Positions 49,825 to 54,115 are shown, counted from the stretch's first letter. The stretch is DNA of 64,000 bases from Escherichia coli (GCF_016903815.1 NZ_CP069973.1); one strand, 5' to 3'. Numbers and translations are program-made. Notes: generated from the sequence alone by a model not told the origin.

Positions 49825-50050
49825 CCGTGACGAAACGGCTCAAAGGCGAGGTATAAATTGAGTTTTTTTGATGAGTTGAAAAACTCTCTGGAAGAGGCTG
49901 TTGAGATTAGAAAGAACCTGCACGGGTGACCCGCTACGAAATTGCAGATGCTAAGGCTATTCGTGAGCAACTTCATACTCCAACCGACCAGTTGCGTAGC
50001 CAGAATGCAATCAAATCTGACAGTCCGCTTCGGCGCGCGCTTTGGTGTAT

Positions 50051-50236
50051 TTACCGGAGTAAATCAGCGTGCCATGGAAAATTATGCGCAGCGCTTCTGC
50101 TGATTTGCGTACCTTCGCTGATGATAAGTCCTGCACTGGCGCGCTGCGCGTAATAGTCCGCCATCATGTCAGTCGTAACGTCACCCGCACGGGAACGTGT
50201 CATCGGTGGCATTACAATACGGTTTTTTAATGGCAA
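50051..50236 (-). pseudogene. Remnant of an Old-Yellow-Enzyme family NADH:flavin oxidoreductase (N-terminal about 45 codons only)
   Basis: ORF track 61 aa [46 protein letters not shown] matches the conserved OYE N-terminus (compare NemA LTRLRS...[23 protein letters not shown]), then diverges and stops; no continuation in other frames. Confidence 0.6.
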
Positions 50237-50284
50237 CGCATTCAGCGCATATTTAGCAAATTACGTAATGGGTCCCTTGCGCGG

Positions 50285-50497
50285 TTATTTGTACAGTTCG
50301 GCACTCATGGTGACGGTATTGCCCATGCGAGCGCTGGTGATTTTGTATTCAGAGGCGTTCATCTCTTTCGCTTTCTGCGCAATAACTGCTTCCGCAGAAT
50401 CCAGTGTTGTACCGGTTGCTGTCACGCTTTGCGCCGATGCGTTAAACGCCGCGACAGAGAAAAGAGAAGCTGTAAAAATTGCGATGATCGTTTTCAT
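50285..50497 (-). CDS. Small secreted protein, YdgH/BhsA/McbA (DUF1471) family, about 70 aa
   Basis: ORF track 126 aa; start set to the internal Met (MKTIIAIFTASLFSVAAFNASA signal peptide); mature part ends ...MGNTVTMSAELYK like DUF1471 proteins. Confidence 0.6.
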   Translation of the reverse strand: MKTIIAIFTASLFSVAAFNASAQSVTATGTTLDSAEAVIAQKAKEMNASEYKITSARMGNTVTMSAELYK

Positions 50498-50654
50498 GTT
50501 TATATTCCAGAGTGTCTTAATTGTTTGGCGTTTATTAACGCGATGGGGAGAGAATACGCCTGCTGCCTGATAACATAAATGATACAAATGACAATAGACT
50601 ATTCTGTTTTTGTTAATAATCAGACGCCGGACGTTCCGACGCCTGTCGATCGCA

Positions 50655-51071
50655 TCAGGCAACAAAGTTGTCCTTCAGCGCCTTGAGACCATCCCGATAA
50701 ATGCCGGTAAACAGCGCCTCGGCCTCTTCGTTCGTCACATTCACCGGGGTGAATTCACCGAACCATTCCACACGGGAAACCTGGCTGTCGGCGGTTTCAT
50801 GAACGGTAATGGTGGAGAGGTAATCCACCACCGGGAACGGTGCCTGAATAATGGAATAGGTATAACTGCGTTGACGGTTATCAAACGCTTCCAGACGTTC
50901 AACCACAGTGCCGCCGTCAGAGGTTGTCAGCGAACGAACGCGACCGCCTTCTGTCACTACGCTTTTCGGGATGAACGGCAGCCAGTCTGGCAGCGCATCA
51001 AAGCCGCCCATCAATTGCCATACGGTGTCGGCAGAAGCCGGAATTTCGATCGATACAGTTGTTTTAGCCAT
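50655..51071 (-). CDS. SRPBCC-superfamily protein (polyketide cyclase/dehydrase or Bet v1-like), 138 aa
   Basis: ORF track 138 aa MAKTTVSIEIPASADTVWQLMGGFDALPDWLPFI..., typical SRPBCC ligand-binding fold sequence. Confidence 0.6.
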   Translation of the reverse strand: MAKTTVSIEIPASADTVWQLMGGFDALPDWLPFIPKSVVTEGGRVRSLTTSDGGTVVERLEAFDNRQRSYTYSIIQAPFPVVDYLSTITVHETADSQVSRVEWFGEFTPVNVTNEEAEALFTGIYRDGLKALKDNFVA

Positions 51072-51096
51072 GATAATTTTCTCTTAATTTATAGGG

Positions 51097-51894: not shown

Positions 51895-51913
51895 CGTTTT
51901 CTCACCAGGTTGA

Positions 51914-52924
51914 TTAACGGGTCGGCAGCGGAGCGTTTTCCGCAACCAGATTTTGACGGCGCATTTCTGCCCAGAATTCAGCCGGAACAGGCGCATTCAG
52001 TGCAGCCAGATCTTCTGCCATACGGCCAGGACGGCTGGAGCCAGGAATAACCGCTGCAACGGCCGGGTTTGCCAGCGCGAACTGCAGCGCAGCTGCTTTA
52101 ACGTTCACATTGAAACGTGTGGCAATGGCGTTAATTTGCGCCACTTTCTGCTGGATGGCCGCAGAGGCTTTCTGATATTCAAAGTGCTCGCCGCCTGCCA
52201 GTACGCCAGAGCTGTATGGACCGCCCACAACGATATCCACGTTCTGTTCCAGTGCTTCTGGCATCAGGTGTTGCAGCGCACGTTCGTGATCCAGCAGGGA
52301 ATAACGCCCCGCCAGCAGGAAAGCATCTGGCTTCGGTTCGTCCAGCGCCAGCGTCAGTTCGCAAGGTTCGACGCGGTTCACACCTAGTCCCCAGGCTTTA
52401 ATCACACCTTCGTCACGCAAACGTGTCAGTGCACGAAACGCACCGGTACGAGCAATGTTGAACTGCTCCAGCCAGCTGTCACCGTAGAAGTCCTGCGCCG
52501 GGTCGTGGATCCAGACAATGTCCAGACGGTCTGTTTTCAGGCGTTTCAGGCTGTCTTCAATCGAGCGCAGCGTGGCGTCAGCAGAGTAGTCATTCAGAAT
52601 TTTGTTTTTCAGGCCGTGTTCGAACAGGCCACCTTTTTCACCGAAATCCCGTTTTGCCGGATCTTCCATTTCGTCCAGCATGATGCGACCGACTTTGCTA
52701 CTCAGAACGTATTCATCGCGTGGATACTGAGACAGCGCTTCACCCATGCGGATTTCAGAAAGGCCAGAGCCGTACAGCGGCGCGGTATCAAAGTAACGCA
52801 CACCCAGGTTCCAGGCTTCGCTCACGGTGGCGTGAGCCTCTTCTTCCGGAATGGCACGGAACATGTTGCCGAGTGGTGCGCCGCCTAAGCCAATTTTGCC
52901 GGGAAGTAAATTTTTGATGCTCAT
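51914..52924 (-). CDS. Aldo-keto reductase family oxidoreductase, 336 aa
   Basis: ORF track 336 aa MSIKNLLPGKIGLGGAPLGN...VRYFDTAPLYG, typical AKR N-terminus. Confidence 0.78.
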   Translation of the reverse strand: MSIKNLLPGKIGLGGAPLGNMFRAIPEEEAHATVSEAWNLGVRYFDTAPLYGSGLSEIRMGEALSQYPRDEYVLSSKVGRIMLDEMEDPAKRDFGEKGGLFEHGLKNKILNDYSADATLRSIEDSLKRLKTDRLDIVWIHDPAQDFYGDSWLEQFNIARTGAFRALTRLRDEGVIKAWGLGVNRVEPCELTLALDEPKPDAFLLAGRYSLLDHERALQHLMPEALEQNVDIVVGGPYSSGVLAGGEHFEYQKASAAIQQKVAQINAIATRFNVNVKAAALQFALANPAVAAVIPGSSRPGRMAEDLAALNAPVPAEFWAEMRRQNLVAENAPLPTR

Positions 52925-52975
52925 AAGATGTCCTCAATTATTCGGTTTGGGTTAGGGCGTTTTTTGCTATCACCC

Positions 52976-52991
52976 TGTGACGTGGATCACA
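52976..52991. promoter_or_regulatory. Perfect TGTGA-N6-TCACA palindrome in the AKR/LysR divergent promoter (CRP-like site or LysR-associated operator)
   Basis: tgtgacgtggatcaca lies about 50 bp upstream of the AKR start and about 65 bp upstream of the LysR start. Confidence 0.45.
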
Positions 52992-53056
52992 ATACCTTGC
53001 GATGTTGTGACTTGATAGGACATAATTCGTCTGACTTAAGTCCTTTGAGGTCTAAC

Positions 53057-53944
53057 ATGATTGATTTACGCCAACTGAAGTACTTCGTGGTGGTCGCAGA
53101 AGAAGAGCACGTGGGACGCGCAGCCGAGCGATTACATATCTCGCAATCACCGCTGAGCCGCCAGATTGCACAACTGGAAGAACGGCTGGGGCTGACGCTG
53201 TTTGAGCGTAATCAGCAGCGCATTCGCCTGACCGCTGATGGACAGACATTCCTTGCCGAAACACGTTCGTTGCTGACACACGCCAACCGCCTGGAGTCGT
53301 TAGGCAAACGCCTGGGACGGGGGGAAGATGGTGGCTTGTGTATTGGCTATATCGAAAACGCCATGCATTCCGGTGTGCTTTCTACGGCGCTACGTACGTT
53401 ACGTGTATCGCGTCCGAATGTGCATATCGCACTTTACAGCCAACCACCGGCTACCCAGATTGAAGGCCTGCGCCAGCGCAGTCTCGATTTTTCTCTGGTC
53501 GATACGCCGCCCACCGACAGCGAGCAGGATCTGGAATATATTCAGGTTCTGGATGATCGAATGTTGTTGGCCTTACCGCAAAATCATCCTCTGGCGCAGG
53601 AGGAAAACCTTGTCGCGTCACAACTTGGCGATGAGCAGTGGATTGCGGTGATTCATAACGACGATGCGCATTCTCGCGATCATTTTGTCGCCGCCTGTGT
53701 TAACGCCGGGCTTAATCCTGATATTCGCCTGGAAGCGGGTGAACCCCTCACGGCATTAGGTTTGGTCGCTGCGGGATTAGGTCTGGCCTTAATTCAACAT
53801 AGTCTGCGTCATAATGCGCCGGAAGGGGTGGTATTACGTGAATTGCCGTGGATGAATTATTCAACGCAATTATGGGCAGCCTGGCATAAAGCCAACCAAC
53901 GTCCGCTGGTTTCCCATTTCCGCCAGATTTTGCGCGGTGAATAA
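53057..53944 (+). CDS. LysR-family transcriptional regulator, about 295 aa
   Basis: ORF track open from 52928; start set to MIDLRQLKYFVVVAEEEHVGRAAERLHISQSPLSRQI (canonical LysR HTH); divergent from the AKR-SDR operon. Confidence 0.8.
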   Translation: MIDLRQLKYFVVVAEEEHVGRAAERLHISQSPLSRQIAQLEERLGLTLFERNQQRIRLTADGQTFLAETRSLLTHANRLESLGKRLGRGEDGGLCIGYIENAMHSGVLSTALRTLRVSRPNVHIALYSQPPATQIEGLRQRSLDFSLVDTPPTDSEQDLEYIQVLDDRMLLALPQNHPLAQEENLVASQLGDEQWIAVIHNDDAHSRDHFVAACVNAGLNPDIRLEAGEPLTALGLVAAGLGLALIQHSLRHNAPEGVVLRELPWMNYSTQLWAAWHKANQRPLVSHFRQILRGE

Positions 53945-54115
53945 AACGTTAAGCGGGAACCATGAGTTCCCGCTTGATTTGAGATGTCAGTCCGCATCTG
54001 AGCTAATACGCTTAAAGAGAATTCTGCCTTTTCGGGGACTCATCATTTAACTAATACCGGATGCGATGCTGGCTGAACTGCACCCCAAATGTTGGACATA
54101 ATCTGACATCTGAAG

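Follow-up and report, generated by a model that had tools for sequence, protein, structure and literature searches.

The spacer between nadR and ettA in a 64,000-nt window from Escherichia coli NZ_CP069973.1 carries a real, well-bounded, and conserved accessory chromosomal islet. It is uncharacterized and of an ordinary kind, namely a LysR-type transcriptional regulator (LTTR) and a divergent oxidoreductase operon, acquired at a spacer already known to be polymorphic. The window is the whole stretch of DNA analyzed, and coordinates refer to it unless another genome is named (numbers such as L005 mark compared loci). Within this redox cassette, lysR (plus strand) diverges from genes for an aldo-keto reductase (AKR), a short-chain dehydrogenase/reductase (SDR), and a small SRPBCC protein (minus strand), with a DUF1471 gene downstream and the remnant of an Old Yellow Enzyme (OYE) gene last. 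The best-supported reading is that the cassette encodes an inducible NAD(P)H-dependent unit that would act on a carbonyl or hydroxyl group of one small molecule; the SRPBCC protein would serve as its ligand-binding partner. Its most interesting element is the deeply conserved AKR-SRPBCC pair, which lay outside the framing of a preliminary description of this DNA.

The preliminary description proved accurate for the most part, and its interpretation holds in part. All six open reading frames (ORFs) that it named were recovered in our ORF listing at the same coordinates, and they match the PGAP gene calls in the RefSeq comparison genome NZ_CM132948, which is 99.97% identical over the cassette stretch. 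The family assignments also held, by Pfam for five genes and through NF007899 for the OYE fragment, as did the gap of 19 nt between the AKR and SDR genes. The DUF1471 gene follows the SRPBCC gene after a gap of 157 nt. The parts of the cassette are as follows.

50025..50270, minus strand: OYE (NemA-like alkene reductase) pseudogene, aligned to the intact gene of E. coli E69; residual ORF at 50051-50236 (minus strand)
50285..50497, minus strand: DUF1471 protein (YdgH/BhsA/McbA family), 70 aa; PF07338, E 3e-11
50655..51071, minus strand: SRPBCC protein, cytoplasmic, Polyketide_cyc2 or "XoxI/MxaD-like", 138 aa; PF10604, E 9e-31
51097..51894, minus strand: classical SDR, 265 aa; PF13561/PF00106, E 1e-43 and 2e-37
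51914..52924, minus strand: AKR, first gene of the operon, 336 aa; PF00248 over residues 10-322, E 8.2e-45
52997..53052, no strand assigned: control region with a candidate lysR promoter (promoter-like match) and a dyad conserved in 14 taxa
53057..53944, plus strand: LysR-type regulator, 295 aa; PF00126 (HTH_1), E 4e-24, and PF03466 (LysR_substrate), E 2e-38
53951..53975, no strand assigned: terminator-like hairpin with an 11-bp stem, immediately 3' of lysR

Conservation of the module across bacteria

The module is shared by many genera. From 571 AKR relatives, scanned with one genome per species, we kept 80 loci and analyzed 77. A lysR gene was adjacent and divergent at 76 of the 77, an SRPBCC gene was present at 74, and an SDR gene lay between the AKR and SRPBCC genes at 69; the divergent architecture given in the preliminary description is thus real and conserved over many genera. 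Hosts within the Enterobacterales were Trabulsiella, Yokenella, Yersinia, Raoultella, Klebsiella, Serratia, Providencia, and Ewingella, and the others were Acinetobacter, many Pseudomonas, a Duganella, and a Streptomyces. The DUF1471 and OYE genes accompany the module in Enterobacterales only, OYE in just some of them. Beside the module, the 77 loci had no conserved transporter, lactonase, dehydratase, or further enzyme of a pathway.

The AKR-SRPBCC pair is common in Klebsiella, Enterobacter, Pseudomonas, and the Bacillus cereus group. In all six Firmicute-type contexts (B. cereus, Lysinibacillus, Paenibacillus, Priestia, Thermoactinomyces, and a low-GC contig labeled Vibrio), a gene for an AKR of 336-338 aa stands directly upstream of one for an SRPBCC protein of 136-138 aa, with gaps of 5-80 nt. 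The regulators beside the pair in these contexts are two HxlR, TetR, or ArsR-type proteins, and in B. cereus two HxlR-family regulators diverge from it. The AKRs of E. coli and B. cereus are 71% identical with no gaps, and their SRPBCC proteins are ~63% identical, as counted from the HMMER alignment. A third phylum is represented by Streptomyces sp. Ru62 (L079), a genuine high-GC contig (locus GC 0.726, AKR GC at third codon positions, GC3, 0.955) with LysR, AKR, and SRPBCC and without the SDR, whose AKR is 74% identical to that of E. coli.

The adjacent AKR-SRPBCC pair is therefore the evolutionary core of the module, to which Proteobacteria added the SDR and LysR. AKR identity is 71%-88% over nine hosts, 71%-86% to orthologs in four groups at about phylum level, and 71%-77% between phyla, despite GC3 values from 0.20 to 0.96, which points to long-resident genes under unusually strong constraint rather than to recent transfers. 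Because the pair is adjacent, highly identical across phyla, and adapted to host codon usage, AKR and SRPBCC could form a dedicated two-protein oxidoreductase system for one specific, widely encountered small molecule, a proposal we make tentatively. If it were true, the E. coli islet would be an outpost of an ancient, unrecognized enzyme system and not a generic detoxification cassette. The wider point for enzymology is a pair conserved across three phyla at more than 70% identity (AKR), which offers a cheap and tractable target for function assignment, with crystal structures of two partner proteins already deposited.

Two other partnerships were considered and rejected. Matches to Bacillus structures in the PDB had suggested SDR and SRPBCC as the deep pair, but the invariant neighbor of the Firmicute SRPBCC gene is the AKR gene, and an SDR gene is nearby only in Paenibacillus. 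A two-component system downstream of the module in Pseudomonas is on the opposite strand, occurs at ~49 of the 77 loci, and was judged to reflect lineage synteny. We note that two records in the survey are likely mislabeled. One is a 1.4-kb contig (L008) in a "Collinsella sp." metagenome-assembled genome, with proteins that share 99%-100% identity with LysR and AKR of E. coli. The other is a "Vibrio vulnificus" contig (L097) of 36.8% GC, on which three SRPBCC genes of Bacillus-like type stand in tandem and alternate with two genes for AKRs.

Distribution and maintenance of the cassette in E. coli

Of 5426 complete E. coli genomes, 482 (~9%) had the cassette, always on the chromosome and as a single copy; O145:H28 RM13516 is one strain that bears it. 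The SRPBCC, SDR, and AKR genes were covered to at least 80% in 481 of the 482. Accessory presence at the nadR-ettA junction, as proposed in the preliminary description, is borne out by this census, as is its statement that ettA follows nadR after a short spacer in K-12, where the spacer is 306 nt long and holds no cassette. The same description had put the intervening DNA at about 4 kb. The distance from the nadR stop to the ettA stop in the window is 5.7 kb, including a 1432-bp insertion sequence, IS1397, that begins just beyond the end coordinate it had chosen.

The five cassette genes other than OYE were intact in every relative examined. Ratios of nonsynonymous to synonymous divergence (dN/dS) were 0.01-0.31 within E. 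coli and 0.02-0.14 in comparisons with E. whittamii, Trabulsiella, Yokenella, and Klebsiella. By gene, values were 0.02-0.04 for the AKR, 0.04-0.14 for the SDR, and 0.05-0.16 for the SRPBCC gene, and the range for DUF1471 was 0-0.31 (six relatives with a full-length ungapped alignment), this gene also being intact in every relative checked. These ratios indicate that the cassette is maintained by purifying selection and functional. Synonymous divergence (dS) among E. coli cassette alleles was 0.014-0.09, compared with 0.006-0.12 for nadR, radA, and ettA; the residence of the cassette in E. coli is about as old as the divergence of the lineages themselves.

We found no sign that the cassette moves by itself. 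It has no integrase, transposase, or recombinase of its own, the sole transposase being that of IS1397. No flanking repeats surround it, and the only significant inverted repeat is formed by IS1397 and a split repetitive extragenic palindromic (REP) element. PLSDB plasmids gave no match to the cassette at the megablast level. A self-mobile island or integrative element was rejected on these grounds, and an anomaly of GC content or codon usage was rejected as a transfer signal, as the cassette genes (GC 0.48-0.59 overall) fall inside the range of the flanking core genes. The reductase genes had been described as visibly richer in GC than their core flanks, which does not hold: the SDR (0.589) and AKR (0.556) genes compare with radA at 0.578, serB at 0.569, and ettA at 0.553, and only nadR (0.506) is lower.

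The same block has other chromosomal flanks in E. coli E69, E. whittamii, and Klebsiella pneumoniae, and the flanks differ by genus. It adjoins yhiN/pitA in E69 and lies between a gab-type cluster and crl-frsA in K. pneumoniae, where it is very common. Homology of the window to E69 and E. whittamii (L006 and L007) stops at 53975 and 53977. The block common to other species thus ends at the hairpin after lysR, and it is trimmed nearly exactly to gene boundaries. In E69 (L006 12523-16971), the cassette is followed by an ORF for a 1482-aa helicase-like protein, P-loop/DUF4011-type by eye, which could be a defense or island gene.

The insertion site

The cassette is flanked on both sides by remnants of nadS, the antitoxin gene of a toxin-antitoxin (TA) locus, and the islet therefore lies inside nadS, where it replaces the middle ~116 nt. 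The flanking features are listed below.

49828..49972, plus strand: last ~29 nt of the toxin gene (parE/relE) and 5' nadS remnant, 88% identical to uropathogenic E. coli (UPEC) 26-1 (L005 3001-3155)
49973..50024, no strand assigned: 52-nt segment at the left edge of the islet, shared only with a longer islet (L003 3149-3200)
54012..54041, plus strand: 3' nadS remnant, found by local alignment to UPEC 26-1 (L005 3272-3302)
54074..55505, plus strand: IS1397 (IS3 family), 1432 bp, so named by PGAP; NF033516, 300 bits against a cut-off of 160

The 5' remnant covers ~115 nt (49858-49972) and has lost its start codon (ATG to TTG at 49858) and 10 nt by deletion. PGAP annotates 49858-49994 as a frameshifted NadS pseudogene. 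The 3' remnant is short, and its alignment score of 36 compares with a mean of 14.7 (standard deviation 2.1, maximum 22) for shuffled sequences. The 31 nt that follow it match, with 100% identity, what lies beyond nadS in UPEC 26-1, a strain with the intact parE/relE-nadS locus (L005 2697-3315). Comparison of the 52-nt segment at 49973-50024 with nadS and with other genera gave no match.

The TA state of this spacer has been described as parE-3/yiaG-2 (TA30) in B2, adherent-invasive, and uropathogenic strains (PMC7232551). That islet is a two-gene module of a RelE/ParE toxin with NadS at the same chromosomal site, and its remnants flank the cassette; in the window, by comparison, the toxin gene is deleted and the antitoxin gene is split by a 4-kb redox cassette. 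Alignment of four spacer alleles (UPEC 26-1 with intact TA, K-12, the 118-nt minimal spacer of JJ1887, and the window) showed that K-12 shares the toxin-gene deletion breakpoint of the window. Its nadS remnant (L002 4039-4146) has lesions unlike those of the window, runs into REP elements, and bears no trace of the cassette. This K-12 remnant was reported as expressed in a genome-wide screen with a reporter transposon (PMC12350097).

Five states of the spacer were seen: intact TA, the K-12-type nadS remnant with REPs, the 118-nt minimal spacer, the cassette, and a longer form of the cassette. In a search with probes from the ends of nadR and ettA, the two genes were less than 900 bp apart in 4903 genomes and separated by a long insert in 520. 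Shares of the states, which are approximate, come from a systematic 60-row sample.

K-12-like: ~68%
Intact TA pair: ~13%
118-nt minimal: ~8%
Long insert: ~8%

The cassette adds a fifth well-defined state to this polymorphic spacer, and it shows how a small metabolic cassette that has no mobility machinery can take the place of the central part of an antitoxin gene in decay. The long insert was something other than the redox cassette in ~38 genomes. The longer islet form occurs in 21 genomes (e.g., E. coli GPEC1165, L003), and the window form equals it minus 1577 bp, a deletion across a 7-nt overlap. The additional genes of the longer islet, located between the nadS and OYE remnants (L003 3415-4618), encode a permease of the TauE/SafE family and a winged-helix protein of 123 aa.

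IS1397 is a later, secondary event and not a component of the cassette, because sister alleles (L003, L004, L090) do not have it and retain an intact palindrome at the empty site. It lies in the loop of a REP element, or palindromic unit (PU), beside ettA, and it has terminal inverted repeats, a two-ORF transposase, and a 4-bp target duplication, TGGC, at 54070-54073 and 55506-55509. IS1397 is known to target PU elements.

Decay of the OYE gene

The OYE gene of the window is a pseudogene. The residual ORF has 61 codons, of which the first ~47 residues resemble N-ethylmaleimide reductase, and it matches NF007899 over residues 17-66 only, with 56 bits against a cut-off of 403 and no full-length frame. 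Alignment to the intact counterpart in E. coli E69, which encodes 365 aa (L006 10659-11756, CP089930.1), reveals four lesions: the start codon is changed from ATG to ACG, codon 2 is TAA, an internal deletion of 686 bp (junction 50098|50099) causes a frameshift, and the gene has lost its 3' end. The 686-bp segment had no match in RefSeq complete E. coli genomes, which rules out an intact copy of this gene among them; OYE is a pseudogene in every cassette-bearing RefSeq E. coli.

Inactivation has occurred independently at least three times, in E. coli, in E. whittamii by a different deletion of 638 bp (L007 ~10656-11116), and in Trabulsiella odontotermitis by a frameshift (L015 5449-6527), and the other five genes are intact throughout. 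The Klebsiella cassette has no OYE gene. This repeated decay shows that OYE is dispensable, and the window would accordingly encode two working reductase types rather than the three that the preliminary description had placed under one regulator. That description had also overlooked the full extent of the OYE decay and the nadS remnants on both sides.

Alternative histories of the cassette

Could the cassette instead be ancestral at nadR-ettA and deleted in K-12-like strains, so that a deletion polymorphism is segregating? It interrupts nadS, of which strains with the complete TA locus show the uninterrupted state; the K-12 remnant has its own lesions and a REP-element end; the loci that the same block occupies in E69, E. 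whittamii, and Klebsiella are unrelated; and only ~9% of genomes carry it. Set against this are the toxin-gene breakpoint common to K-12 and the cassette haplotype, a synonymous divergence as deep as that of the flanks, and the lack of mobility genes, flanking repeats, and plasmid copies. On balance we consider ancestral residence improbable. The preliminary description had itself proposed that its reading would fail if the gene string were universal at this locus, with K-12 simply a deletion derivative and no mobility signal; of these, the absence of a mobility signal is what we found, whereas universality is contradicted by the census, and K-12, where the nadS remnant decayed independently and which lacks the interruption by the cassette, is not shown to be a simple deletion derivative.

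A cassette with no current role, either a nonfunctional hitchhiker or a decaying remnant, would fit the local surroundings, in which the OYE, nadS, and toxin genes have all decayed and an IS has landed beside the cassette. The selection estimates already contradict it: all five genes are intact in relatives with the low dN/dS given above, the three enzyme-module genes are retained in 481 of 482 genomes, and the regulatory region is conserved across phyla. We regard this explanation as very unlikely, and prefer the reading of a functional cassette acquired at the spacer.

Control region and predicted proteins

Directly upstream of lysR, ~55 nt show striking conservation in 14 taxa. They contain a candidate lysR promoter on the plus strand (TTGCGA-18-CATAAT, 52997-53026), which is overlapped by a dyad, GAC-N7-GAC-N18-GTC-N7-GTC, at 53009-53052. 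Its four triplets, together with ATTATG, are invariant in all of these taxa, a range that extends from E. coli through Pseudomonas and Duganella to Streptomyces. The dyad, which has not been demonstrated to be of the classic T-N11-A form of LTTRs, is a putative operator, and the layout is that expected of an autoregulating LTTR that activates a divergent promoter. An Rfam search of 49700-55700 gave no structured RNA or riboswitch at E ≤ 0.1.

For the AKR, the catalytic tetrad D46/Y51/K77/H140 is present by inspection of motif positions and is kept in the alignment with the Bacillus ortholog. Its closest solved structures are plant L-galactose dehydrogenases, matched at E 1.4e-29 over partial stretches. 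The SDR sequence contains SGSTSGIG, of the TGxxxGxG cofactor type, and YGVTK (YxxxK), and a GRK after beta-2 suggests a preference for NADP(H). Structural homologs of the SDR are PDB 8G9M (E 7e-137) and 3T4X (E 6e-70), and the solved helix-grip homologs of the SRPBCC protein are 3CNW from B. cereus (E 4e-52) and 3F08 from B. thuringiensis (E 1e-50). By inspection, the DUF1471 protein appears to have an N-terminal signal peptide and would be secreted; its NCBIfam matches to BhsA, RclB, and YhcN are weak and all under cut-off. The best NCBIfam models for LysR, namely AlsR, PRK09986, and HcaR, are likewise all under cut-off, the top one being AlsR with 220 bits against 430.

None of the cassette proteins reaches an NCBIfam equivalog cut-off, and full-text literature searches found no description of this gene set or of the AKR-SRPBCC pair, in agreement with the earlier statement that no described pathway was known with exactly these genes at this locus. 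Names given by sequence sources are only generic or automatic ("D-threo-aldose 1-dehydrogenase", "MxaD family", "xoxI").

Predicted function

In the mechanism that we propose from these features, LysR would bind the dyad over its own promoter and thereby repress itself, and binding of a small-molecule inducer would lead it to activate the akr promoter. The AKR with its SRPBCC partner, and the NADP(H)-type SDR, would then oxidize or reduce carbonyl or hydroxyl groups of a single hydrophobic or reactive small molecule, in one step or two. Most probably, a toxic compound of the carbonyl, quinone, or aldehyde type would be removed by reduction, and in Enterobacterales a periplasmic stress-family protein would accompany this.

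We are evenly balanced on whether the role is indeed detoxification. It is favored because the neighbors are of a stress type and conserved transporters and pathway enzymes are lacking. The quinone, aldehyde, or electrophile role suggested in the preliminary description has circumstantial support, which consists of the likeness of DUF1471 to BhsA, RclB, and YhcN, the neighboring OYE gene in some Enterobacterales, and the HxlR regulators in B. cereus. Several findings weigh against this reading. AKR identity above 70% across phyla is unusual for a broad-specificity detoxifier and hints at a single, specific substrate. The nearest AKRs with solved structures, as L-galactose dehydrogenases, oxidize lactols and do not reduce toxic carbonyls. 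Regulators beside the module vary by lineage (HxlR, TetR, ArsR-type, LysR), which makes the HxlR hint weak, and the repeated loss of OYE places an ene-reduction step outside the selected function. Finally, the promoter-like match in the control region is for lysR, and an akr promoter was not identified.

The cassette could instead be a unit for the conversion or catabolism of a specific small molecule, in which the AKR would dehydrogenate a lactol or alcohol in the manner of L-galactose, L-fucose, and D-threo-aldose 1-dehydrogenases, the SDR would perform a second redox step (e.g., epimerization by oxidation and re-reduction), the SRPBCC protein would bind or process a hydrophobic substrate or product, and LysR would sense a metabolite. 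Extreme conservation and the sugar-dehydrogenase relatives are what favor a specific conversion: the cross-phylum identity of the AKR with host-adapted codons implies a single conserved substrate, gaps of as little as 5 nt between the AKR and SRPBCC genes suggest a dedicated two-protein system, the nearest solved structures are L-galactose dehydrogenases, and some sources automatically name the protein D-threo-aldose 1-dehydrogenase. LTTRs, moreover, typically respond to pathway metabolites. The 77 loci, however, offer no conserved transporter or pathway enzyme for such a route, the likeness to sugar dehydrogenases is distant and partial, and the Enterobacterales neighbors (DUF1471, OYE) are of a stress type. 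We see a catabolic role as possible and less probable than detoxification. Nothing pointed to a new kind of biological system or to a part in virulence or resistance.

Comparison with known systems

The AKR shares its catalytic tetrad with L-galactose dehydrogenase and D-threo-aldose (L-fucose) 1-dehydrogenase (PDB 8SCC, 7SMI, 7EZI), although the similarity is remote and covers partial stretches (E 1e-29 to 1e-19). This distance, and the lack of sugar-pathway neighbors at the cassette, mean that the substrate of the sugar dehydrogenases is not transferable to the cassette AKR; membership in their subfamily was rejected, as the best PDB match was E 1.4e-29 and no sugar-pathway context was seen.

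The structures 3CNW ("XoxI"), 3F08, 8G9M, and 3T4X represent direct homologs of the SRPBCC protein and the SDR, and their depositor names are only generic. The names XoxI and MxaD derive from methanol-oxidation clusters. Such clusters are absent at the cassette, and its SRPBCC protein has no signal peptide; our literature search found nothing that ties "XoxI" to this module.

Classical LTTR pairs (CatM/BenM, HcaR, AlsR) have the same HTH_1 and LysR_substrate domains and a divergent operon, and their dyad operator over the regulator promoter may have a counterpart in the candidate dyad of the cassette. They differ in that the named LTTR models score far under cut-off against the cassette LysR.

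E. coli K-12 has several electrophile and aldehyde units, including nemR-nemA-gloA, yqhC/yqhD-dkgA, and rclR/rclABC. They resemble the cassette in having a dedicated regulator beside reductases that use NAD(P)H (NemA, an OYE, and DkgA, an AKR), and rclB encodes a DUF1471 protein, as the cassette does. They differ in that their regulators are of the TetR and AraC families rather than LysR and that they have no SRPBCC partner and no such SDR. By analogy, and with no claim of membership, these units are most likely the best model of how the cassette would work.

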